Source of the DNA: Escherichia coli
GTDB taxonomy: Bacteria; Pseudomonadota; Gammaproteobacteria; Enterobacterales; Enterobacteriaceae
DNA: 64,000 nt
Strand: one strand, 5' to 3'
NCBI RefSeq assembly: GCF_003991155.1
Contig: NZ_CP031293.1
The position numbers and the translations under genes are program-made. Below the pieces are notes generated by a model. It saw nothing but the letters and a program-made list of their open reading frames with translations, made no database searches and had not been told where the DNA came from. Position 1 is the first letter of the stretch. Each line of letters begins with the position of its first letter. This document shows positions 1,604 through 64,000 of this stretch, one piece after another.

Positions 1604-3448
1604 TTGAATAACCCCTCATTAATAGCAAGTCGATTACAACTTTATGATTATAGCCAGCAAGAAACGTTAAATTTTGATTTGTTGGATCACCTCTTGGATT
1701 CATTGACTCAACATACAACACAACTTAAGACATTTATATCTCAACTGAAAAAAGATAAAAATCTCCGATTTATTAAAGAGTACATGGACACTGAACGTAA
1801 TATTTCAAGGTTAATCCCTTTATTAAATCAGCAGTGGAGTGATTTTTTTCAATTGATGTTGAATGAAAAATTATATACACAACAACAAATAAAATCATAT
1901 TCCCTGGACAGTCTTTATTTTTCAAATCAAGACACTTTATTAAAAGTCAACCATAATGGCTGTCTATCACAGTATATATCTGAACATAAAACATATCTAA
2001 ATATAGAACAGCCTCAAATTCAAATGCTAATAGATAAGTTTAAATGTTTAGATATTTTATTTAAGAATTTATCATATAACAACTCAGAAGCATCTTTATT
2101 TTCAGCCGTATATAAAGAGTCACTTTATGAACTTAATTATCATAATTTAAAAGAGCTTATTTGCTATGAATACAAATGTGCAGACGAAGATAAAATCAAA
2201 CACCAAAACTTCACCATATTACTAAGCAATGCATCAACATATCTTTATAAAAAGATAGATAAAAATATCGAAAAATATATAGCTATAGTTCTCGAAAATT
2301 GTGAGAATAGTATAGCTGATGCTGAAAATGCAGTTGTTGTAATTATTAATAAATCAGGAATTGATGAGGAAATAAAAAAATCATACATAGCAAAACTCAA
2401 TAATAGATTGAGTGACTTAAGTAAAATAGATGAATCAAATATGTGGTCTTACTTATTAGACCAACGAAAAATAGAGTATACTGCTGAGAATATTATTTTT
2501 TATTTTTCTCAGCATAGTGAATTAGATGAAACAATAATTAAATTTATAGATAGCGAAAAATCTATTACACTAGACTATTATAGTGGGTTTACAGACGATA
2601 TCAAAGAGAGATTTTTCGACAAGGTCATCATTTGTGAACAAATTAGCGATAACAAATACTTCGAGATATTATCTTCATTAGACTATTGCTATGAATCATT
2701 TGATATATCCGGTTTGCAGGATGCGAAGATAAAAGTACTTATCGACACTAATATAATTCGAATGTCCATTCTGAATCTAGAGTTTCTAAGAACTACATAT
2801 CCTAATAACCTTATGCATTATATAAATAAAAATATAATCGACTATATTAAACTACAGACAGGTGAATCTGCTGTTAGTGACACAAATGAAATTTTGAACG
2901 TCTTAGAATTAGATATTGATGATTCACAAAAAGAAAAGCTATCAATGATAGTAGATACTCCAATCTCTATTCAAAATAATAAATACTCAACTCTCTTTAA
3001 GAAACACATCCTCACAAATAAATTAGATATAAATGACATCCCTTATCTCATAGAAAATTATGGCACATTAGTAGCACTTCAATCGACAATTCTAATCATT
3101 TTAAGTGGTCACGTCAATGAGGTAAAAGATCATGCTGATAAATTATCGATTAACTTGTTAGAGGTCTTAATAAAGGATGCTCATTTTATCCATGATGATA
3201 ATGTAGAATTATTTGTAAAGCAGATAACTAACATGAATAAAATACAAATCAAGAAGTTTCTAAAACTGATTAATTCTTCTGAGTTAACTATCTTATTAGA
3301 TAAAAAATTGGCATCGATAAAAATAAGCTCGTCTAATGAAAAAATACTTAAGAGTTTCATAACAAATGGATTAATAAAATCCTACAGCCAAAGTACTGAA
3401 GATCCTGAATCATACATAATAGATTTCCCTGAGGAGTTTCTTGATTAA
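1604..3448 (+). CDS. Hypothetical protein, very AT-rich (N/K/I/L-rich); reading frame is open upstream to 1358, so likely 5'-truncated by the IS
   Basis: 614-aa ORF starting at a TTG. The same frame stays open back through the 3' end of the ISAs1 element to a stop at 1355-1357. No recognisable motifs. Confidence 0.5.
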   Translation: MNNPSLIASRLQLYDYSQQETLNFDLLDHLLDSLTQHTTQLKTFISQLKKDKNLRFIKEYMDTERNISRLIPLLNQQWSDFFQLMLNEKLYTQQQIKSYSLDSLYFSNQDTLLKVNHNGCLSQYISEHKTYLNIEQPQIQMLIDKFKCLDILFKNLSYNNSEASLFSAVYKESLYELNYHNLKELICYEYKCADEDKIKHQNFTILLSNASTYLYKKIDKNIEKYIAIVLENCENSIADAENAVVVIINKSGIDEEIKKSYIAKLNNRLSDLSKIDESNMWSYLLDQRKIEYTAENIIFYFSQHSELDETIIKFIDSEKSITLDYYSGFTDDIKERFFDKVIICEQISDNKYFEILSSLDYCYESFDISGLQDAKIKVLIDTNIIRMSILNLEFLRTTYPNNLMHYINKNIIDYIKLQTGESAVSDTNEILNVLELDIDDSQKEKLSMIVDTPISIQNNKYSTLFKKHILTNKLDINDIPYLIENYGTLVALQSTILIILSGHVNEVKDHADKLSINLLEVLIKDAHFIHDDNVELFVKQITNMNKIQIKKFLKLINSSELTILLDKKLASIKISSSNEKILKSFITNGLIKSYSQSTEDPESYIIDFPEEFLD

Positions 3449-3492
3449 TGCTAATCTTTAACAAGATGTCATAAATACACTTCAACAAAGAA

Positions 3493-3528
3493 AAAACCAC
3501 CAGCATCTCAATTGCTGGTGGTTTTTCT
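3493..3528 (+). terminator. Rho-independent terminator downstream of the AT-rich gene
   Basis: aaaaaaccaccagcatctcaattgctggtggtttttc: GC stem ccaccagca/tgctggtgg followed by a T-run. Confidence 0.6.
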
Positions 3529-3577
3529 TCTCCTAATTATCAGGAATCACCTCACGTAGCGGTCGGATGCAGTAGAA

Positions 3578-3677
3578 AAATTGGTGGTCATTCTGGTGGT
3601 CTTGACAATCTCGATTTTTTGTTTTAGCTTACCAATCAGCCAGTTAATGGCTACGGCGATCCCAGTCAGAGGAGCCC
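3578..3677 (+). repeat. att-like repeat copy A (about 70 bp of island arm plus the last ~17 nt of tRNA-Asn)
   Basis: ttggtggtcattctggtggtcttgacaatctcgattttttgttttagcttaccaatcagccagttaatggctacggcgatcccagtcagaggagcc; the 3' end matches the tRNA-Asn acceptor/T-arm end (cagtcagaggagcc). Confidence 0.75.
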
Positions 3678-3683
3678 AATTTC

Positions 3684-3710
3684 TGAAAAACCCGCTTTTA
3701 TAGCGGGCTT
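3684..3710 (-). terminator. Hairpin terminator downstream of cbl
   Basis: cccgcttttatagcggg stem with flanking A/T runs, immediately 3' of the cbl stop on the minus strand. Confidence 0.5.
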
Positions 3711-3714
3711 TTCG

Positions 3715-4665
3715 CTATATCTGATAATCAATTTCCTCTTCACTGTTTTCCATCACCTGGCGCTTGATATCCTCAACTGACAGTCCTGCATTACAAAGTT
3801 CCAGAAAGCGCCAGACATAGTTACGTTGAAGTTGCCCTCGCTTCAGTCCCAACCAGACAGTATTAGCATCGAAAAGATGCCTCGTATCCAGACGGATTAA
3901 ATTCTTTTCCTCTTGTTCACCACTGGATTGTTCGGCAACTAATCCGATCCCCAGCCCAAGAGCAACATAGGTTTTAATGACATCAGAATCCTGCGCACTT
4001 AATACAATATCTGCCAGCAAACCTTTGCGGGCAAATGCGTCATCAATACGTGAGCGCCCCGTAATCCCCTGTCGGTAAGTAATTAACGGCCACTTCGCTA
4101 TTGATTCCAGCGTCAACGGTGTAATTTGCGTCAAGGGATGATCGAGTGGAACAAGCAAACTATGGTGCCAACGAAACCACGGGAAGGCGACGAGCTGCGG
4201 GTCATTACTCAAACGCTCGCTGGCGATACCAATATCAGCTTCGCCATTTTGCAACAACGTCGCAATTTCCTGTGGTGTACCCTGGATTAGCTCCAGCCGA
4301 ACCTCCGGGAAAAGTTCGCGAAAAGCTTTAATGACCTCAGGCAAGCTATAACGTGCCTGAGTATGCGTCGTTGCAATAGTGAGAACGCCAGACGTATCGT
4401 TGGTAAACAGGTCTGCAAGCCGACGAACATTACTGGCTTCATTCAGAATACGTTCTGCAATGACCAGTAATGCTTTGCCCGGTTCAGTCATGCCCAGCAG
4501 TCGCTTACCTCGTCGAACAAATATTTCGATGCCAAGTTCATCCTCCAGTTCCCGAATATGACGGCTAACGCCTGACTGTGAGGTAAAAAGCATATTCGCA
4601 ACCTCTGTCAGGTTGTAATCCTGACGTGCAGCCTCGCGGATTATCTTTAGTTGTTGGAAATTCAC
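3715..4665 (-). CDS. cbl: LysR-family regulator Cbl (CysB-like)
   Basis: 316-aa ORF MNFQQLKIIREAARQDYNLTEVANMLFTSQSGVSRHIRELEDELGIEIFVRRGKR...; N-terminal HTH plus LysR substrate-binding region; sits next to nac as in E. coli. Confidence 0.85.
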   Translation of the reverse strand: MNFQQLKIIREAARQDYNLTEVANMLFTSQSGVSRHIRELEDELGIEIFVRRGKRLLGMTEPGKALLVIAERILNEASNVRRLADLFTNDTSGVLTIATTHTQARYSLPEVIKAFRELFPEVRLELIQGTPQEIATLLQNGEADIGIASERLSNDPQLVAFPWFRWHHSLLVPLDHPLTQITPLTLESIAKWPLITYRQGITGRSRIDDAFARKGLLADIVLSAQDSDVIKTYVALGLGIGLVAEQSSGEQEEKNLIRLDTRHLFDANTVWLGLKRGQLQRNYVWRFLELCNAGLSVEDIKRQVMENSEEEIDYQI

Positions 4666-12700: not shown

Positions 12701-13883
12701 ATTCTGCCATAAAACCATTGTCATCATACTGGCAGGTCACAAGACGCTGACGCTGCGGCGTTGCCAGGTCAATGCTCATCAGCTGAGCCTGTTGCCAGGC
12801 AAGGGCGAGCATATAGCCATCGCTGTGACGGATTTCTGTCAGCAGACCATCAGTGCGGATAAAATCAATCCGGTTGCCATAATTATCGAAGACAGCGGAC
12901 AACCGCCAGACGCCATTGCCTGCCGGGGAAAAGAGCTGTGTCTGCTGCGAACGGCGATCGAAAACGCTCACGCCATCGCGCAGGCTTCCCGTCAGCCGGT
13001 AGTACGCCTGGCGTGAGTTCACTGCACCGCGAAAGATACCGTCCTGCGGCAGGCGGTAATACAGTACAACGCCTTCACTGTCGGTAAAATGCAGCCGGTT
13101 ACCCTGTATCGTCAGCGACGCTGACCACTCATCGGTCCATTTCGGGCCGAAAATCCCGGTCCCCCTGGCCTGTGAGCGGTAAAAACGCGAGAGCGTCAGC
13201 GGCAGGGAACCCGGCAGCGAAAGCACGCTGAAATGCTGGAGAAAATCGCCGGTGCCAATATCCACAGGCTCACCGGGTTTGGTGCACAACTGAGCACCAA
13301 CACATTTACTCTGATCACCAGTTCCCTCGGTTTCACCTTTAATATTTGCGCCATCCTGGCCTTCGGGTATGACATCATCCGCCAACTTTTCTGCGTCACT
13401 GACAACATCGTCTGCTTTGTTTACCTTCAGCAGATCGGCGGTGAATTTCCCCGCCGCTGCTTCTTCTCGTGCCAGTTTACTGGCAGTCCGCATCGCTCTA
13501 AGACCCACGAACCCGCCTCGGGCCAGACCATATCCTCCCAGCGCCAGCGAGCCATGGTCATAAATCATGCCGCCAATTTCCTGGTTCCTGTTGCTCATTT
13601 CCAGACGGTACATGTCCAGATTGAAATCTCCCGCATGCTCCCGGAGATCTCCGCCCATGTTGTACATATCCTCGCCAATATCATCCATGCCCATCGCAGA
13701 AAGCATGGCGCCGTTCATCTGCATTTCTCCGGCATACTGCATGGTGGCCCCCTGGCCTATCATCGTCGCCATATCCGGGAACTGGTTCCAGAATGCTTTG
13801 GCAGCACCAATAGCCAAATCAAGCTGGACTGCCGAAGCTTCAATTTTCGCCCGACTTTCATCCATCTGGATCATCAACATCAT
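9795..13883 (-). CDS. Rhs-family YD-repeat toxin (core plus variable C-terminal toxin domain); frame open upstream to the IS boundary at 13994
   Basis: 1362-aa ORF with many YD repeats (YRYDxxGRL, YxYDxxGxL), the core-terminating ...RYYDPDTAQYISADPIGLLGGLNPYSYVQNPFSYIDPLGL motif, then a ~95-aa unrelated tip. N-terminus is not the canonical E. coli Rhs MSGKPAARQGD start and is Gly/Ala/Met-rich. Confidence 0.9.
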   Translation of the reverse strand: MMLMIQMDESRAKIEASAVQLDLAIGAAKAFWNQFPDMATMIGQGATMQYAGEMQMNGAMLSAMGMDDIGEDMYNMGGDLREHAGDFNLDMYRLEMSNRNQEIGGMIYDHGSLALGGYGLARGGFVGLRAMRTASKLAREEAAAGKFTADLLKVNKADDVVSDAEKLADDVIPEGQDGANIKGETEGTGDQSKCVGAQLCTKPGEPVDIGTGDFLQHFSVLSLPGSLPLTLSRFYRSQARGTGIFGPKWTDEWSASLTIQGNRLHFTDSEGVVLYYRLPQDGIFRGAVNSRQAYYRLTGSLRDGVSVFDRRSQQTQLFSPAGNGVWRLSAVFDNYGNRIDFIRTDGLLTEIRHSDGYMLALAWQQAQLMSIDLATPQRQRLVTCQYDDNGFMAECDTFQFSHLWHEYTSEGFMTRWRDTDKTCVDIRYDPQGRAVSTLSTEGYFDDRFIYNDDEKCTTYLDAEGGETRYWYNEDGLVTRCIDPLGREEITVWNNARLQSRTDALGRTTAYRYNREGEVIQVALPGGYGLFYEYNDTGQLTRLSTTDNQAWQWVYDDRGSIISLIDPQGRKQQFSYSEQGDLLARILPGGATWCWSHDALHQVRETVAPDGGITQTEQDMLGRLLSVKDPLGFTTQFRHSKIHAGPQGCVEEIQRPDGVRELMRQNSEKLPESFTDGEGKTTRYEYGAFDLLTALVRPDGERLACRYDKLTRLTEITNAEGERYRLKYDKAGQLVAETDFTGRTLNYTYDAVGRCIRTSFPDGTHLNRRYNVNDQVTDEEVTQGNSDRTLSVTTFRYDTQRRLVEAKNDDATVTFEYNDANQIVAETLNGRRTEYRYDPDLDTVTQRTTAGITERFTRNLMGHLASWQIADHAPLTFEHDLRGLETSRRSEAGFYQTLAYTRTGMPAKQNAGDHQAGPYERNKSLERQWLYDKAYNLTVISDSLRGSAFNNMTVNDQVSHATWTGDSREFPLCEELFTYDKNLNIARRQTWVNEVLESETHQQLRHGRVVSREHKGWRHQTHRINPDTGKPEEGKFVRVVNEHNITWTYDANGRLVEKLVDKGGYRPLEWRYRWDARSQLTGLETPEGERWEYKYDPFGRRISKRCTNRDKSGMDFHWNGDQLTEEIPVGTDGKPEYENAIRWIYEPGSFTPLARYEKGLLHYAVTDTVGRVQELLTEDGTIVWRGKQQLWGREEGRNKDDAPDCRLRFPGQYEDTESGLYYNRFRYYDPDTAQYISADPIGLLGGLNPYSYVQNPFSYIDPLGLSALFAFLQEVNCKKLWSKGSWDTPAESLLEHFRKHGREVGAETVEQYLNKAKVFSENLRRIKPTKVSGYTENVWRYRKNGRYIDVAVDTGEIVSFGRL

Positions 13884-13992: not shown

Positions 13993-15244
<1,252 letters not shown>

Positions 15245-15252
15245 CCACTACA

Positions 15253-41763: not shown

Positions 41764-43013
<1,250 letters not shown>

Positions 43014-43016
43014 CCA

Positions 43017-43385
43017 CTACAATGAGAGCATAAGTACACCTGCCGTCATTTCTGGTACGGCAACGCCCCCCGGTGTATAAGCTGTCCCGTTAATGATGAT
43101 GTCACAGGCGGGTTTCAGGGGGGCGAGGTCGCTTTCGCGCAGTACCGGAGATGTGTTCATCTCCCCGGCATACTCATCTTCCACACACAGCGGTAGCGGC
43201 GGGTTTTCGATAAGTTGGGTTTGCCACTGACCATTTTCGTCCCGTTGCAGCCGGAAGCCCGTTTTCATGGCGATAACGCGGTGACGTTCGCTATGTTTAT
43301 CATCCATCGCATATTCTATCGCTGAAAACGGCGTCAGGTTACGAAATTCCATATTGCACCCCGATCCCGTCTGTACCTGTCGCAA
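43017..43385 (-). CDS. Hypothetical 121-aa protein (possible effector-associated adaptor); last codons now replaced by IS sequence
   Basis: MEFRNLTPFSAIEYAMDDKHSERHRVIAMKTGFRLQRDENGQWQ...; the reading frame runs 5 nt into IS copy 2. Confidence 0.5.
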   Translation of the reverse strand: MRQVQTGSGCNMEFRNLTPFSAIEYAMDDKHSERHRVIAMKTGFRLQRDENGQWQTQLIENPPLPLCVEDEYAGEMNTSPVLRESDLAPLKPACDIIINGTAYTPGGVAVPEMTAGVLMLSL

Positions 43386-55299: not shown

Positions 55300-55530
55300 C
55301 TGATCCTTTCAGGGTGGTAGGGGTATAAAGACGCGCCTGTACTCTACCGGACGCTTCCGGGCAACCCACTTCCCACCGAAGTTGTTGGTATTGACTGACT
55401 GGCTGGTCTTCTGGCTTAGCGTCATCCTCTCCCGACCTTCCCAATCTCGCGATCAGTGGCATTTTCGGGTTTGTCAGCATTACAGCAGCGGGGGCTGCGA
55501 GGGATTTTCACCCTCTTCCCAGGCACAAAT
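55300..55530 (-). promoter_or_regulatory. Cobalamin (B12) riboswitch
   Basis: Minus-strand reading contains GGTGAAAATCCC, GCAGCCCCCGCTGCTGTAA and a B12-box-like AAGCCAGAAGACCAGCC (14 of 16 to consensus). Confidence 0.6.
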
Positions 55531-55649
55531 GTGCCACACCTGTCAGCGTATGTTATGAGCTGATTTCACTTTTCCCATAACAGGGAAATAACGTTAATTA
55601 TTCATTCCAGAGTTTATTTAAACCGTCCTCTTTTTTTGGGGCATTTACT

Positions 55650-56564
55650 CTATACCGTTTCCATCGCCGCATTATCACTCACTTGCTGTCGATACACCTG
55701 CGGCGTAACCTGATAAGTCTGACGGAAAACTTTGCAAAAATAACTTGTTTGCGAAAAACCTAAATTACGCGCAATGCTGGCGATGCTCCAGTCACTATGG
55801 CACAGTAACTCACGAGCGCTGGCCATCCGTTGTTGGTTTACCCACGCATTAAACCCGATTCCATGGTATTTCTTAAATAACTTACTGAAATAATAAGGGC
55901 TTAGATAAACGTGCGAGGCGACATCTTCCAGACGCAAATCGTCTGATAAATGCGCATCAATATAACGTAAAGCTTTTTTCATTTTATTGTCGTGGGGACC
56001 AGGCGCACGAGTCTGGCGCAACGAATCTGACTGAGATTTGTTCTCTTTAATAACCACAAAATTGAGTTGTTTTTTTAGGCAATTTTCTACAATCAACTTC
56101 AACAAATCCGCAGAGGCCATAACTCTTGAGTAATCCATCTCAGGGACTTTGCGAAATTCATTAAGTAATTCGGGATCTGCCTGCCAGCAATCATCGACAT
56201 TCAGAATATCGACCAAATCGACATCATCATTACGCAGACGAACTTGCCCGCACAATACAAAACCAACTAAATGTCCGGCGATTACCAGTGGAATAGAGAA
56301 ATCGGTTAATCCGGCATGACAGCGATAAATACAAGGCTGATCGGATTTAGAGGCTTCCAGCCCCCCACAACGATCGCTCATGCGACATCGAGTGCTCATC
56401 TGAGGGTGTTGCCGCATCATCTGACAAAATGGAGTGAAGTTAAACAGCTCGGAAATTTCATCGCCGTGAATATTGACCACGACAACCGCAAGGCTGGTCG
56501 CCTGCGCAAAATCCTGCGCGATTTTATTAATGAGTTCTGAATTAAGTGTCGCCGCAGAAATCAT
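55650..56564 (-). CDS. pocR: AraC-family regulator of the pdu/cob regulon
   Basis: 304-aa ORF with C-terminal AraC HTH (...LRLEDVASHVYLSPYYFSKLFKKYHGIGFNAWVNQQRMASARELL...); divergent from the pdu operon. Confidence 0.8.
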   Translation of the reverse strand: MISAATLNSELINKIAQDFAQATSLAVVVVNIHGDEISELFNFTPFCQMMRQHPQMSTRCRMSDRCGGLEASKSDQPCIYRCHAGLTDFSIPLVIAGHLVGFVLCGQVRLRNDDVDLVDILNVDDCWQADPELLNEFRKVPEMDYSRVMASADLLKLIVENCLKKQLNFVVIKENKSQSDSLRQTRAPGPHDNKMKKALRYIDAHLSDDLRLEDVASHVYLSPYYFSKLFKKYHGIGFNAWVNQQRMASARELLCHSDWSIASIARNLGFSQTSYFCKVFRQTYQVTPQVYRQQVSDNAAMETV

Positions 56565-56766
56565 GATAAAACCTCCCAGTTAATTTATTGTTATAGCAAA
56601 ACAATTGTTTTACATTTAATCTTCACATCATCCTTGATGATTTACTGACGAGAAGCACAAAGGACAATAACAAAAGCCTCCGTGAAGCGGGAGACTTTTT
56701 AATAAGTTCGGAAAGCAGATCACAAACAGTAAAAAAATAAACGTTTATAACTGCCAGATTATTTCA

Positions 56767-57576
56767 TTATTCGCTGATTTCTTTAGGCGTTACACTATTG
56801 ACAGGTAAATTCTTTGCAATGAGATAGCGATAAATCGCCGCACCAACACATGCCCCAATGATCGGTGCAATAATGGGTACAATGAAATAAGGAATATTGC
56901 GTCCACCAGTCATCGCAATTTCCCCCCAACCCGCAAACCAGGTGAAAATTTTAGGTCCAAAATCACGCGCTGGATTCATGGCAAAACCGGTTAATGGTCC
57001 GGTAGAAGCACCAATAACAGCAACCAGAATACCAATAAGTAAAGGCGCAAGCGGTCCTTTGGGTACGCCATTACCGTCATCGGTCAACGCCATAATCAAC
57101 CCCATTAACATGGACGTTATGACCACTTCGACCAACGCAGCTTGCCATACATTAATCGCCGCTGCTGGATAAGTACTGAAGATACTGGCGAGTTGTAAAC
57201 TTTCTGCGCTACCACGCACTATATTGTGAGCAGATTCAAAATCGATAAACAAACTGCTGTAGAGAGAATATGCCAGAACCGCACCACCAAAGGCACCCGC
57301 TAATTGCGCCACACAAAATGGCAGCACTTTACGGGCTGGGAAAGAGGCAAACAGCCACAGAGCAATGGTAACTGCCGGGTTGAGATGAGCGCCGGAAATA
57401 CCTGCCGTAAGGTAAACAGCAAGCGAAATCCCTAACCCCCATATGATACAAATTTCCCACAGTCCCAGACTTGCCCCGGCAACTTTCAGGGCGCACAAAC
57501 AACCAATGCCAAAAAAGAGGAACAGTCCGGTGCCCAAAAACTCGGCAACGCATTGCGCCTTGAGTGAATCATTCAT
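56767..57576 (-). CDS. pduF: Propanediol diffusion facilitator (MIP/aquaglyceroporin family)
   Basis: ORF 56767-57615; start likely MNDSLKAQ (57576); two NPA motifs (HLNPAVT, MNPARD). Confidence 0.8.
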   Translation of the reverse strand: MNDSLKAQCVAEFLGTGLFLFFGIGCLCALKVAGASLGLWEICIIWGLGISLAVYLTAGISGAHLNPAVTIALWLFASFPARKVLPFCVAQLAGAFGGAVLAYSLYSSLFIDFESAHNIVRGSAESLQLASIFSTYPAAAINVWQAALVEVVITSMLMGLIMALTDDGNGVPKGPLAPLLIGILVAVIGASTGPLTGFAMNPARDFGPKIFTWFAGWGEIAMTGGRNIPYFIVPIIAPIIGACVGAAIYRYLIAKNLPVNSVTPKEISE

Positions 57577-58009
57577 AGTGACACCTTCTTTACGGAGTTT
57601 TTCTTTATCAGCCAACTATGCGCTGATTGTTGTGTATACCGAGCGCAACTATAAAAAATTGCTCTGCAGAAAATATTGCCAACATGCATGACAGACTCGT
57701 GTAAAAATCGTGCTAACATAACAAATTATTGTCATTGCCGAATCATGCAACACAGCTTTAATCAGTGTTGAAGTAATAATTTCCACCAAACTTTTACAAT
57801 AAAAAATTGCCATCATGACATAATAAAATTGAAACAAATATCACAGTTCCTTCCTCGAACCAAACTCAACGAAATATTATTCGCGATTAAACTCACTAGC
57901 CAACGCAATTAATTCACATTGAAACATCCACAAAACAACCAATAAATTAACAACATATAGTTCATAAAAGCAATTTTATTATATTTGTTCTCTAGGTAAT
58001 GACTCCAAC

Positions 58010-58513
58010 TTATTGATAGTGTTTTATGTTCAGATAATGCCCGATGACTTTGTCATGCAGCTCCACCGATTTTGAAAACGACAGCGACTTCCGTCCCAGC
58101 CGTGCCAGGTGCTGCCTCAGATTCAGGTTATGCCGCTCAATTCGCTGCGTATATCGCTTGCTGATTACGTGCAGCTTTCCCTTCAGGCGGGATTCATACA
58201 GCGGCCAGCCATCCGTCATCCATATCACCACGTCAAAGGGTGACAGCAGGCTCATAAGACGCCCCAGCGTCGCCATAGTGCGTTCACCGAATACGTGCGC
58301 AACAACCGTCTTCCGGAGCCTGTCATACGCGTAAAACAGCCAGCGCTGGCGCGATTTAGCCCCGACGTATCCCCACTGTTCGTCCATTTCCGCGCAGACG
58401 ATGACGTCACTGCCCGGCTGTATGCGCGAGGTTACCGACTGCGGCCTGAGTTTTTTAAATGGCGGAAAATCGTGTTGAGGCCAACGCCCATAATGCGGGC
58501 GGTTGCCCGGCAT
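58010..58513 (-). CDS. insB: IS1 InsB (transposase catalytic part)
   Basis: 167 aa: [64 protein letters not shown]... Confidence 0.9.
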
Positions 58514-58707
58514 CCAACGCCATTCATGGCCATATCAATGATTTTCTGGTGCGTACCGGGTTGAGAAGCGGTGTAAGTGAACTGCAGTTGCCATGTTTTA
58601 CGGCAATGAGAGCAGAGATAGCGCTGATGTCCGGCGGTGCTTTTGCCGTTACGCACCACTCCGTCAGTAGCTGAACAGGAGGGACAGCTGATAGAAACAG
58701 AAGCCAC
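58432..58707 (-). CDS. insA: IS1 InsA
   Basis: 91 aa: [43 protein letters not shown]... Confidence 0.9.
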
Positions 58708-58863
58708 TGGAGCACCTCAAAAACACCATCATACACTAAATCAGTAAGTTGGCAGCATCACCTGTTCTCTATTAATTTTTCTCATTAGCCGAGTAAGTCA
58801 GCCATTCTTTTTCCTCGCTTTTTTTTATAGTCATATCGTCAAAAAAATCCAGGCGAGGTCTTT

Positions 58864-59148
58864 ATGCAACAAGAAGCGTTAGGAATGGTAGAAACCAAAG
58901 GCTTAACTGCCGCCATAGAGGCCGCAGATGCCATGGTGAAGTCGGCAAATGTTTTGCTGGTCGGCTACGAAAAAATAGGTTCCGGGCTGGTGACCGTCAT
59001 CGTTCGTGGTGATGTCGGGGCGGTAAAAGCGGCAACAGACGCGGGTGCCGCAGCTGCGCGTAACGTCGGCGAAGTAAAAGCCGTACACGTTATTCCCCGC
59101 CCACATACCGATGTCGAAAAAATCTTACCAAAGGGAATTAACCCATGA
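58864..59148 (+). CDS. pduA: Bacterial microcompartment shell protein (BMC domain)
   Basis: 94 aa: [57 protein letters not shown]... Confidence 0.9.
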
Positions 59149-59957
59149 GCAGCAATGAACTGGTCGAACAGATCATGGCGCAGGTCATCGCTCGCGTAGC
59201 GACGCCAGAGCATGAGGTTCTCCCGAAAACCACTCATCAAATACGAGAGACGGCTATGGCAGAAAAAAGCTGCACGTTAACAGAATTTGTTGGCACCGCT
59301 ATTGGCGACACTGTAGGTCTGGTCATTGCGAACGTTGATAGCGCCCTGTTGGACGCGATGAAACTTGAAAAACGCTATCGTTCCATTGGCATTCTGGGGG
59401 CGCGTATTGGCGCAGGGCCACACATTATGGCCGCTGATGAAGCGGTAAAAGCCACCAACACTGAAGTTATTAGCATTGAACTTCCTCGCGATACTAAAGG
59501 CGGTGCCGGACACGGCTCATTGATCCTCTTAGGTGGCAACGATGTTTCCGACGTGAAACGCGGTATTGAAGTTGCCCTGAAAGAACTCGATCGGACCTTT
59601 GGTGATGTCTATGCCAACGAAGCCGGGCATCTTGAACTGCAATACACCGCCCGCGCCAGCTATGCACTGGAAAAAGCGTTTGGCGCTCCACTGGGACGGG
59701 CTTGCGGCGTTATTGTCGGCGCTCCGGCTGCGGTGGGTGTTCTGATGGCCGACACCGCGCTGAAGTCCGCCAATGTGGATGTCGTGGCATACAGCTCCCC
59801 CGCTCAAGGCACCAGCTACAGCAACGAAGTCATTCTGATTATCTCGGGTGACTCCGGCGCAGTCCGCCAGGCGGTCATCTCCGCACGCGCAATCGGTAAA
59901 ACCGTGCTTTCGACTCTCGGCGATACACCGAAAAACGATCGCCCTTCCTACATCTGA
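59145..59957 (+). CDS. pduB: Microcompartment shell protein, tandem BMC domains
   Basis: 270-aa ORF overlapping the pduA stop; [24 protein letters not shown]... Confidence 0.85.
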
Positions 59958-59975
59958 ATTCTCTGAGGCAGATTT

Positions 59976-61640
59976 ATGAGATCGAAAAGATTTGAAGCAC
60001 TGGCAAAACGCCCGGTCAACCAGGACGGTTTCGTTAAAGAGTGGATTGAAGAAGGCTTCATTGCGATGGAAAGCCCGAACGATCCTAAACCGTCAATCAA
60101 AATTGTTAACGGCGTCGTTACCGAACTGGATGGAAAACCCGCCAGTCAGTTTGACCTGATCGACCACTTTATCGCCCGCTACGGCATCAATCTCGCGCGC
60201 GCAGAAGAAGTCATCGCGATGGATTCGGTAAAACTTGCCAATATGTTGTGCGATCCAAATGTCAAACGTAGCGATATCGTTCCCCTTACCACAGCAATGA
60301 CGCCTGCAAAAATCGTCGAAGTGGTTTCGCAGATGAACGTGGTAGAGATGATGATGGCGATGCAGAAAATGCGCGCCCGTCGAACACCATCACAACAGGC
60401 TCACGTCACCAACATCAAAGATAACCCGGTACAAATTGCCGCCGACGCAGCTGAAGGCGCATGGCGCGGGTTTGATGAACAGGAAACCACTGTTGCCGTT
60501 GCTCGCTATGCACCGTTCAACGCCATCGCCCTGCTGGTCGGCTCACAGGTGGGACGTCCGGGCGTCTTGACCCAGTGTTCACTGGAAGAAGCCACCGAAC
60601 TGAAACTCGGTATGTTAGGCCACACCTGTTACGCCGAAACAATTTCTGTCTATGGTACAGAACCTGTTTTCACCGATGGCGATGATACCCCGTGGTCAAA
60701 AGGATTTCTCGCGTCATCCTATGCTTCTCGCGGCTTAAAAATGCGCTTTACTTCCGGCTCCGGCTCTGAAGTACAGATGGGTTACGCGGAAGGCAAATCA
60801 ATGCTTTATCTCGAGGCTCGATGCATTTACATCACCAAAGCCGCAGGCGTTCAGGGTCTGCAGAATGGTTCGGTAAGCTGCATCGGTGTTCCATCAGCTG
60901 TGCCATCAGGCATCCGCGCAGTATTAGCGGAAAACTTAATTTGCTCATCGCTGGATCTGGAATGCGCCTCCAGTAATGACCAGACCTTTACCCACTCGGA
61001 TATGCGCCGTACCGCACGTTTCCTGATGCAATTTCTGCCGGGTACCGACTTTATCTCGTCCGGTTTTTCCGCTGTGCCGAACTACGACAACATGTTTGCT
61101 GGTTCAAACGAAGATGCTGAAGACTTCGATGATTACAACGTCATTCAGCGTGACCTGAAGGTTGATGGCGGGCTGCGACCAGTACGCGAAGAAGATGTTA
61201 TCGCAATCCGCAATAAAGCCGCTCGCGCTTTACAGGCTGTCTTTGCCGGTATGGGACTACCGCCAATTACCGATGAAGAAGTCGAAGCGGCAACCTATGC
61301 CCACGGTTCGAAAGATATGCCTGAGCGCAATATTGTGGAAGACATCAAGTTCGCCCAGGAGATTATCAATAAAAACCGTAACAGCCTGGAAGTGGTGAAA
61401 GCCCTGGCGCAAGGCGGTTTTACCGATGTCGCCCAGGACATGCTCAACATGCAAAAAGCAAAACTGACCGGCGATTATCTCCATACCTCAGCCATCATCG
61501 TCGATGACGGACAAGTGCTCTCAGCGGTCAATGACATCAATGATTACGCCGGACCAGCTACAGGTTACCGCCTGCAAGGGGAACGCTGGGAAGAGATCAA
61601 AAATATTCCCGGTGCACTTGATCCCAACGAAATTGACTAA
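59976..61640 (+). CDS. pduC: B12-dependent propanediol dehydratase, large subunit
   Basis: 554 aa: MRSKRFEALAKRPVNQDGFVKEWIEEGFIAMESPNDPKPSIKIVNGVVTELDGK... Confidence 0.9.
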   Translation: MRSKRFEALAKRPVNQDGFVKEWIEEGFIAMESPNDPKPSIKIVNGVVTELDGKPASQFDLIDHFIARYGINLARAEEVIAMDSVKLANMLCDPNVKRSDIVPLTTAMTPAKIVEVVSQMNVVEMMMAMQKMRARRTPSQQAHVTNIKDNPVQIAADAAEGAWRGFDEQETTVAVARYAPFNAIALLVGSQVGRPGVLTQCSLEEATELKLGMLGHTCYAETISVYGTEPVFTDGDDTPWSKGFLASSYASRGLKMRFTSGSGSEVQMGYAEGKSMLYLEARCIYITKAAGVQGLQNGSVSCIGVPSAVPSGIRAVLAENLICSSLDLECASSNDQTFTHSDMRRTARFLMQFLPGTDFISSGFSAVPNYDNMFAGSNEDAEDFDDYNVIQRDLKVDGGLRPVREEDVIAIRNKAARALQAVFAGMGLPPITDEEVEAATYAHGSKDMPERNIVEDIKFAQEIINKNRNSLEVVKALAQGGFTDVAQDMLNMQKAKLTGDYLHTSAIIVDDGQVLSAVNDINDYAGPATGYRLQGERWEEIKNIPGALDPNEID

Positions 61641-61649
61641 GGGTGAGAA

Positions 61650-62318
61650 ATGGAAATTAACGAAAAATTACTGCGTCAGATTATCGAAGGCGTGCTGGCA
61701 GAAATGCAAACCAGCGACAAGTCCGTTTCATTTCGTGCACCTGTCTCTGCAACTGTCTCTTCAGTGCCAGATACCGGAAATTTTCTGACCGAAATTGGCG
61801 AAGCCCAACAAGGCACTCAGCAAGATGAAGTCATTATTGCTGTAGGCCCGGCGTTCGGCCTGGCGCAAACCGTCAATATCATCGGTATTCCGCATAAAAA
61901 CATTTTGCGCGAAGTGATTGCCGGTATCGAAGAAGAAGGCATTAAAGCCCGTGTGATTCGCTGCTTTAAATCGTCCGATGTCGCATTCGTAGCAGTCGAA
62001 GGCGATCGTCTTAGTGGTTCAGGTATTGCTATCGGTATTCAGTCGAAAGGCACAACGGTTATCCACCAGCAGGGACTTCCCCCCTTGTCTAACCTGGAAC
62101 TTTTCCCACAAGCGCCTTTGTTGACGCTGGATACTTATCGTCAGATTGGCAAAAACGCCGCGCGTTATGCGAAGCGCGAGTCTCCACAACCGGTGCCGAC
62201 CCTCAACGATCAAATGGCGCGACCGAAATACCAGGCCAAATCTGCCATTTTGCATATTAAAGAGACGAAGTACGTGGTCACTGGCAAAAAACCGCAAGAA
62301 CTGCGCGTGACGTTTTAA
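61650..62318 (+). CDS. pduD: Propanediol dehydratase, medium subunit
   Basis: 222-aa ORF following pduC. Confidence 0.85.
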
Positions 62319-62332
62319 CAAAGGAAACCTTC

Positions 62333-62851
62333 ATGAATACCGATGCAATTGAGTCGATGGTCAGGGACGTGTTGAACCGCATGAACAGTTTACAGGGTGC
62401 AGCTCCTGTTTCTGCGGTCCCCAGCGCGTCAATACAGAGCGCCAAAGTGACGGATTACCCGCTGGCAAATAAACATCCGGAATGGGTTAAAACAGCAACC
62501 AATAAAACGCTCGACGATTTCACTCTGGAAAATGTGCTCAGCGATAACGTCACCGCCCAGGATATGCGCATTACCCCTGAAACATTGCGTATTCAGGCCG
62601 CGATTGCCAGAGATGCTGGTCGCGATCGCCTGGCGATGAATTTCGAACGCGCCGCTGAGCTTACCTCAGTACCGGATGATCGCATCCTCGAAATCTACAA
62701 TGCGTTACGCCCTTATCGTTCGACTAAGCAAGAACTTATTGCCATTGCTGACGATCTTGAACGGCGTTATCAGGCCAAAATTTGTGCTGCATTTGTCCGT
62801 GAAGCTGCGGAACTTTATGTCGAGCGCAAAAAACTGAAAGGCGACGATTAA
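62333..62851 (+). CDS. pduE: Propanediol dehydratase, small subunit
   Basis: 172-aa ORF following pduD. Confidence 0.85.
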   Translation: MNTDAIESMVRDVLNRMNSLQGAAPVSAVPSASIQSAKVTDYPLANKHPEWVKTATNKTLDDFTLENVLSDNVTAQDMRITPETLRIQAAIARDAGRDRLAMNFERAAELTSVPDDRILEIYNALRPYRSTKQELIAIADDLERRYQAKICAAFVREAAELYVERKKLKGDD

Positions 62852-62887
62852 GGACGAACTATGCGATATGACGATTAAGGACGAACT

Positions 62888-64000
62888 ATGCGATATATAG
62901 CAGGCATTGATATCGGCAACTCATCAACAGAGGTTGCGCTGGCAACGCTCAGTGCAACTGGAGAGTTGTCGTTCGTGAGTAGCGCCCTGGCGGAAACCAC
63001 CGGAATTAAAGGTACGTTGCGTAACGTCCATGGTATTCAGGAGGCGCTCGCACAGGCAACGAAAAAAGTCGGCATCAATGTTAGCGATATTTCGCTTATT
63101 CGTATCAACGAAGCAACTCCGGTCATTGGTGATGTGGCGATGGAAACCATCACTGAAACTATCATCACCGAATCAACCATGATCGGTCACAACCCGAAAA
63201 CGCCGGGCGGAGTGGGGCTGGGCGTAGGGCTCACCATCACTCCGCAAGAGTTATTAACATGCCCGGCGGACACACCCTACATTCTGGTGGTGTCATCGGC
63301 ATTTGATTTTGCCGATATCGCAACAATGATAAACGCCTCCGTACGCGCCGGATATCAGCTGACTGGCGTTATTCTGCAACGCGACGATGGCGTACTGGTC
63401 AATAACCGCCTGGAAATTCCTCTCCCTATTGTTGATGAAGTCCTCTACATCGATCGTATTCCGCTCGGCATGCTGGCTGCGATTGAAGTTGCCGTTCCCG
63501 GGAAAGTTATCGAAACCCTGTCTAACCCGTATGGGATTGCCACCGTTTTCGCCCTCAATGCTGAAGAGACTAAAAATATTGTTCCTGTCGCGCGGGCGCT
63601 AATCGGCAACCGTTCAGCAGTGGTAGTGAAAACGCCTTCTGGCGACGTTAAAGCCCGTTCGATACCCGCCGGAAATATCGAACTGCTTTCTGCCGGGCGC
63701 ACAACGCGGGTTGATGTAGCTGCTGGTGCCGATGCCATTATGAAAGCGGTCGGTGAGTGCCCAAAACTGGAAAACGTGACGGGAGAACCTGGCTCCAACA
63801 TCGGCGGAATGCTGGAACATGTTCGCCAGACCATGGCTGAACTGACCAACAAACCCAGCCACGAAATTTTTATTCAGGATTTGCTGGCGATAGATACCTC
63901 TGTCCCCGTCAACGTAACCGGTGGTCTGGCAGGTGAATTTTCACTGGAACAGGCTGTGGGTATTGCCTCTATGGTGAAATCCGACCGTCTGCAAATGGCG
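62888..64000 (+). CDS. pduG: Diol dehydratase reactivase, large subunit (3' partial, runs off the window)
   Basis: Frame open from ATG 62888 (MRYIAGIDIGNSSTEVALATL...) to the window end; position after pduE. Opposite-strand ORFs here are judged spurious. Confidence 0.75.
   Translation, partial: MRYIAGIDIGNSSTEVALATLSATGELSFVSSALAETTGIKGTLRNVHGIQEALAQATKKVGINVSDISLIRINEATPVIGDVAMETITETIITESTMIGHNPKTPGGVGLGVGLTITPQELLTCPADTPYILVVSSAFDFADIATMINASVRAGYQLTGVILQRDDGVLVNNRLEIPLPIVDEVLYIDRIPLGMLAAIEVAVPGKVIETLSNPYGIATVFALNAEETKNIVPVARALIGNRSAVVVKTPSGDVKARSIPAGNIELLSAGRTTRVDVAAGADAIMKAVGECPKLENVTGEPGSNIGGMLEHVRQTMAELTNKPSHEIFIQDLLAIDTSVPVNVTGGLAGEFSLEQAVGIASMVKSDRLQMA

Follow-up and report, generated by a model that had tools for sequence, protein, structure and literature searches.

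A recent IS1 insertion between the predicted divergent promoters of the pduF–pocR and pdu transcription units in Escherichia coli

The spacer that separates the divergent pduF and pduA genes of this Escherichia coli strain is interrupted by a complete and recently acquired copy of IS1. As judged from promoters mapped by homology with Salmonella, the element sits almost mid-way within a back-to-back promoter pair. This position suggests that PocR-dependent induction of the pdu operon has probably been lost or strongly reduced, with pocR and pduF still expressed. Throughout, the window denotes the whole 64-kb stretch of DNA that was analysed, and all coordinates refer to it unless spacer positions are specified. 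The element and its boundaries are composed of the following features:

57995–58762, minus strand: complete IS1, 768 bp, bounded by 9-bp repeats and two terminal repeats
57986–57994, no strand: left copy of the target duplication, TGTTCTCTA, spacer positions 410–418 of the uninterrupted 510 bp
58763–58771, no strand: right copy of the target duplication, TGTTCTCTA, an exact repeat
57995–58017, plus strand: IRR, the 23-bp right terminal inverted repeat of IS1, GGTAATGACTCCAACTTATTGAT, on the pduF side
58762–58740, minus strand: IRL, the 23-bp left terminal inverted repeat of IS1, GGTGATGCTGCCAACTTACTGAT, on the pduA side
58432–58707, minus strand: insA, 91 aa, GTG start
58010–58707, minus strand: InsAB′ transposase, 232 aa, reconstructed through a −1 frameshift at the A6C motif (58450–58456)
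58728–58755, minus strand: inward promoter of IS1, in IRL (CTGCCA-16-TATGAT), directed away from pduA, from a consensus promoter scan

An earlier reading made from the sequence alone had described a complete IS1 flanked by a direct repeat, and both 9-bp copies and both terminal repeats were indeed found. The terminal repeats gave two matches in the 64-kb window where shuffled sequences predicted none, and TGTTCTCTA occurs in the window exactly twice, at 57986–57994 and 58763–58771. Two details of that description had to be corrected: the element counts 768 bp instead of 767, and the right copy of the repeat ends at 58771 instead of 58770. The 232-aa InsAB′ fusion scored 243.8 bits against the NCBIfam model NF033558, ‘IS1 family transposase’ (cutoff 100). 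The criteria tested for membership of the IS1 family (length, imperfect ends of ~23 bp, the insA/insB′ A6C frameshift and a target duplication of 9 bp, sometimes 8) all agree with the element, whose duplication is 9 bp. Its intact reading frames and its identity with other copies suggest that it may be active in transposition.

Position of the insertion relative to the divergent promoters

The genes that flank the insertion are pocR, pduF and pduA, which stand in the canonical order and orientation:

55650–56564, minus strand: pocR, AraC-family activator, intact; 553.3 bits against NF047788 (equivalog, cutoff 500)
56767–57576, minus strand: pduF, propanediol facilitator, intact; PduF is a MIP channel
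58864–59148, plus strand: pduA, ATG at 58864; PduA is 98% identical to Salmonella PduA

The genes pocR, pduF and pduA–E are intact and identical to those of relatives. Two RNA elements were detected in the same neighbourhood, outside the interrupted spacer. A match to the enterobacterial Rfam sRNA STnc230 (76.3 bits, gathering score 50) lies at 56625–56708 on the plus strand, in the pocR–pduF spacer and opposite in strand to both genes, and a cobalamin riboswitch (109 bits) lies at 55384–55650 on the minus strand, only ~90 bp after pocR. The cbi genes are absent, and the riboswitch is followed by a small ORF and by cobU, cobS and cobT. An Rfam search of the pduF–pduA spacer returned no RNA family.

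Transcription start sites were mapped by homology with S. Typhimurium SL1344. In that strain, two dRNA-seq studies place the pduA start 26 nt upstream of the ATG, behind a −10 element TATAGT. The start of pduF is divergent; it precedes the gene by 353 nt and is 146 bp from the pduA start. The Salmonella pduA promoter is listed as AACAGCAAGTCAGCCATTCTTTTTCCTCGCATCTTCTTATAGTCCCAACTA (PMC3293720, PMC3963941). The spacers of E. coli, other Escherichia, Salmonella-type loci, Pseudocitrobacter, Intestinirhabdus and one further enterobacterium were aligned, the Salmonella loci having been gathered via the exact PduA sequence. The alignment yielded three promoter features:

58794–58831, plus strand: core pdu promoter block AAGTCAGCCATTCTTTTTCCTCGC...TATAGT, nearly invariant across genera, with the −10 TATAGT at 58826–58831; contiguous with pduA
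58838, plus strand: predicted pdu operon start (G), ~25 nt before the ATG, homology-mapped from SL1344
57915–57928, minus strand: distal pduF–pocR start (P1), approximate, mapped from Salmonella to 57915 or 57928 depending on the alignment used

The core block, which spans −44 to −7, shows the highest conservation within the spacer in the cross-genus alignment, and the published Salmonella sequence from −50 to +1 aligns with the invariant E. coli block including the −10 TATAGT. Because this block is invariant across genera, the predicted assignment of the pdu start to position 58838 appears firm. A start at −44, taken from the 5′ end of pduA RNA in a CsrA study, was dropped, as the dRNA-seq start at −26 is the one correctly placed behind the invariant TATAGT. 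The consensus promoter scan did not call the native pdu promoter, although it did call the promoter of IS1 itself. The hexamer TATAGT is found, conserved and outward-pointing, at both ends of the spacer (spacer positions 72–77 and 473–478; the spacer comprises window 57577–57994 and 58772–58863). The latter is the mapped pduA −10, and the minus-strand copy ~70 bp before pduF may mark the proximal promoter of that gene.

Counted from the predicted pdu start, IS1 ends at −76 and the native sequence still joined to pduA begins at −75; the opposite end of IS1 is at about −67 to −80 from the mapped pduF–pocR start. The insertion, which had been noticed as lying between the divergent pduF and pduA genes, is therefore also located between the two divergent starts that were mapped from the Salmonella dRNA-seq data. 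Its distance from pduA was likewise as described, with the last IS1 base at −102 from the start codon and 101 bases in between.

Displaced regulatory elements and the predicted effect on pdu expression

PocR is necessary for microcompartment formation (PMC4245221), and the pdu promoter has been reported to give ~50 units without PocR vs ~3,500 with it (PMC11264322). [quoted passage not shown] Within the aligned pdu spacers, three conserved elements besides the core promoter bear on where PocR might act:

57721–57732, no strand: palindrome ACAAATTATTGT, resembling PocR box I of the Salmonella cob promoter, conserved across genera; on the pduF side
57970–57987, no strand: conserved element GCAATTTTATTATATTTG (GCAA-N10-TTG), before the insertion at −91 to −74 relative to the pdu start; stays on the pduF side
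58769–58781, plus strand: conserved element CTATTAATTTTTC, at about −69 to −57 from the pdu start; kept on the pduA side

Insertion of IS1 together with the duplication moves every conserved element upstream of the insertion 777 bp further from pduA. Among these is GCAATTTTATTATATTTG, whose counterpart in Salmonella reads GCAA-N10-TTGC. Everything upstream of −75 is thereby separated from the operon, including this conserved element and the only palindrome resembling a PocR box, in keeping with the proposal of the sequence-only reading that the operon is cut off from part of its native control region. The comparison with uninterrupted spacers of Salmonella and other pdu-positive loci, to which that reading had pointed, gave the same picture: the core promoter is retained on the pduA side and the upstream elements are displaced.

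PMC11264322 gives primers and distances by which the Salmonella cob PocR boxes were located, box I being AATAGCAATATTTTGCTATT. The Salmonella counterpart of the palindrome matches cob box I at 17/20 positions vs a shuffle maximum of 16, and ACAAATTATTGT is the only relative of box I in the pdu spacer that scores above chance. The best match of the spacer to cob box II was 26/48, which is within chance (shuffles: mean 24, maximum 27), and the location of box II by similarity was set aside, as its score was no better than that of the shuffles. The E. coli cob promoter was also set aside as a second example of PocR boxes; the riboswitch stretch (55384–55650) does not align with the cob promoter of Salmonella and is devoid of the palindrome of PocR box I.

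Two other placements of box II were considered. Counting the published 215 bp from the palindrome puts a candidate box II at Salmonella spacer positions 377–424, ending exactly at the homologue of the IS1 target. If instead box II occupies −45 to −92, as a copy of the cob geometry would have it, the candidate box contains the IS1 target. With either placement, the pdu promoter would lose putative PocR-binding DNA. The structure of the insertion, its recency and its position relative to the homology-mapped start are shown by the data, whereas the place where PocR binds at the pdu promoter and the effect on expression are inferred.

In the most likely scenario, an IS1 copy resident in the lineage jumped very recently into the AT-rich pduF–pduA spacer, duplicating 9 bp, and landed between two divergent PocR-dependent promoters, namely the distal pduF–pocR promoter and that of the pdu operon. 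The core promoter, from −75 to the start, is still joined to pduA, and the DNA further upstream is shifted by 777 bp, displacing the GCAA-N10-TTG element (−91 to −74) and the sole palindrome of the spacer that is like a PocR box. PocR, an AraC-type activator, needs a position just upstream of the −35, and the pdu promoter is almost silent without PocR. The pdu operon would then no longer be properly inducible by 1,2-propanediol, and pocR and pduF would retain their own promoters. The insertion leaves intact the pduF-proximal spacer and the promoter region next to pocR, so that production of PocR should continue.

An alternative is that the insertion is nearly neutral. The strongest conservation of the spacer lies downstream of the insertion, in the −44 to −7 block and the −69 to −57 element, and binding adjacent to the −35 or overlapping it is common among AraC-family activators. 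If the contacts needed by PocR and RNA polymerase all fall within the retained DNA from −75 to +1, the operon would remain inducible; in a milder version, CTATTAATTTTTC and the invariant block, both still with pduA, might hold part of the PocR site, such that some induction is kept. Against near-neutrality, the 48-bp cob PocR box reaches to ~−92 and requires a second upstream box as well, the GCAA-N10-TTG element (−91 to −74) has been severed from the promoter, and the insertion, being unique among 640 spacer-bearing genomes, gives no sign of long-term tolerance. Because the similarity to box II is at chance level and two conserved stretches are still with pduA, we consider loss or strong reduction of induction no more than probable, and near-normal induction unlikely.

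A second alternative is that the insertion activates the operon through a promoter formed at its pduA-facing end, for which one candidate was identified:

58749–58778, plus strand: candidate hybrid promoter, TTGGCA in IRL (58749–58754), an 18-bp spacer across the duplication, then TAATTT; read from the sequence

Two papers state that IS1 ends carry an outward −35 and that hybrid promoters can arise where a −10 is suitably placed (PMC8764528 citing Prentki 1986; PMC9330008). In the present strain an outward TTGGCA is situated 8 bp from the tip of IRL, and the hexamers behind it are TTAATT at 17 bp and TAATTT at 18 bp. The latter, the best −10 candidate at spacings of 16–18 bp, matches at 3/6 positions and has the critical A2 and T6. 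Together these elements could form a hybrid promoter that would transcribe pdu constitutively, without PocR or propanediol. This candidate was not called by the consensus promoter scan (threshold 9/12), its spacer is 18 bp, and such hexamers are expected by chance in a flank of 27.5% G+C. InsA binds the ends of IS1 and would cover the outward −35. Moreover, a study of ST131 in which IS1 lay upstream of three genes found expression up in one, down in one and unchanged in one, depending on geometry (PMC8764528), meaning that only 1/3 of the insertions raised expression. The outward promoter that the sequence-only reading had offered as an alternative thus stands as regards its −35, which is present, and has in TAATTT a weak candidate for its −10; activation in this manner appears unlikely. 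Since the pdu promoter is activator-dependent, loss of function is to be expected sooner than activation.

The hybrid promoter could nevertheless be compatible with a simultaneous loss of induction. Here, IS1 would uncouple the bidirectional PocR region: propanediol sensing and auto-induction of pocR and pduF would be kept, and the 21-gene microcompartment operon would be silent or expressed at a low constitutive level from the IS1-flank hybrid promoter. We consider this combined state a long shot. If true, the uncoupling would amount to a natural rewiring of regulation, and selection to avoid the cost of making microcompartments might have favoured it. On the opposite side of the element (57995–58020 with flank 57970–57994, minus strand), an outward TTGGAG is followed after a 19-bp spacer by a perfect TATAAT, and the two may form a weak hybrid promoter directed at pduF–pocR.

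Recency and distribution of the insertion

The insertion was dated by comparison with E. coli MRY15-117, the nearest sequenced relative. This strain is collinear with window 1–57994 without gaps, only 3 of the 57,994 bp being mismatched, and is identical to window 58763–64000 (5,238 bp); the alignments of the left and right flanks overlap on one copy of the 9-mer. With both flanks otherwise collinear, IS1 and its duplication constitute the sole structural difference from MRY15-117 in 64 kb. The only base differences in the 63 kb of flanking sequence are at positions 13556, 42457 and 48924. By our own arithmetic, the two ends of IS1 would carry the same 9-mer by chance with a probability of ~4^-9, and the single copy in MRY15-117 indicates a true target duplication produced by a clean, recent and simple transposition.

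All 768 of 768 bases of the element are identical to chromosome and plasmid copies of the same lineage (2016C-3878, CREC-544 and the MRY15-117 plasmid), showing that donor copies were available; matching copies on E. coli chromosomes and plasmids are annotated in RefSeq as ‘IS1-like element IS1B family’. G+C content is 27.5% around the target site vs 53% within IS1. IS1 is known to prefer AT-rich targets, and the target here fits. The view that this is a simple, recent insertion was upheld by the duplication, by the identity with sibling IS1 copies and by its absence from near-clonal relatives and from 5,426 complete genomes. An assembly artefact, in which a repeat was collapsed or misplaced here, is a most improbable explanation: IS1 is multicopy in the lineage and repeats often cause assembly errors, but misassembly would not precisely duplicate 9 bp that relatives have only once, nor leave both flanks perfectly collinear with a relative.

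The left IS1 junction was found in 0/5,426 complete E. coli genomes, 784 of which matched the adjacent flank, and the 510-bp pduF–pduA spacer was uninterrupted in 639 of the 640 genomes that hold it. The junction is marked by the k-mer TATATTTGTTCTCTAGGTAATGACTCCAACT. An exact search of metagenome contigs for the junction gave no match, and the literature searched contained no mention of IS1 together with pduA. Pdu propanediol use is encoded in roughly 12–14% of complete E. coli genomes.

Among complete genomes, the sole record covering the whole query was that of E. coli 17MR471. As the best whole-region match it was considered as a second instance of the same insertion and rejected, since the IS1 there is a different one, situated within pocR. 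In this other pdu-positive strain (2402–4093 of the extracted locus) an independent IS1 splits pocR, from which it follows that the control module has been struck by IS1 at least twice. In E. coli WB61 (NZ_CP020025.1, 5732–6106 of the extracted locus) only spacer positions 405–510 are left, abutting a fragment of an IS3-family transposase, and the remaining spacer is followed by pduA and a partial pduB. The WB61 breakpoint, at spacer position 405, is 5–13 bp from the IS1 target, and this part of the spacer may be a local hot spot for mobile elements. Elsewhere in the window, two copies of an IS3-family element (13995–15252 and 41764–43021) lie beside RHS-repeat genes, and according to the annotation of a relative the region also carries three tRNA-Asn genes and integrase-bearing islands.

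Propanediol use by the Pdu microcompartment is a gut-fitness trait. Differing from its nearest sequenced relative by one IS1 and 3 SNPs over 64 kb, the strain is a natural and almost isogenic promoter mutant. It is suited to defining the extent of upstream sequence that the PocR-dependent pdu promoter requires, the published boxes there being candidates. Otherwise it is a routine case of IS-driven regulatory variation.

Comparison with known systems

The Salmonella pdu/cob control region is a close counterpart. With divergent pduF–pocR and pdu promoters that depend on PocR (Chen et al. 1995, via PMC10433801), it shares with the E. coli region the gene order, the invariant pduA core promoter and a box-I-like palindrome in the same place. 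The divergent starts are 146 bp apart in Salmonella and map to ~133–146 bp apart in E. coli, depending on the alignment, and the spacer is 524 bp in Salmonella vs 510 bp in E. coli. The two systems differ in that cbi genes and recognisable cob promoter boxes are missing from the E. coli lineage, and in that the region is split by IS1 in the present strain.

Mobile elements have struck the same control module independently in 17MR471 and WB61, at different positions. The insertion in 17MR471 destroys the activator gene, and WB61 retains a decayed remnant with only pduA and part of pduB.

The arrangement also resembles IS1 insertions that change expression, for example those at afa and osmB in E. 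coli ST131, at acrEF, and in the hybrid promoters of bla TEM-1 (Prentki 1986). Here too IS1 lies within ~100 bp of the first gene, and the end with the outward −35 faces that gene. The present case differs from these in lacking a strong −10 at the right spacing and in that the target promoter is activator-dependent. With respect to the IS1 family, the element is alike throughout (768 bp, 23-bp ends, A6C frameshift, 9-bp duplication and AT-rich target) and differs only in its site. Insertion of an IS into an activator-dependent promoter region is a well-known kind of mutation, and only the site is new.
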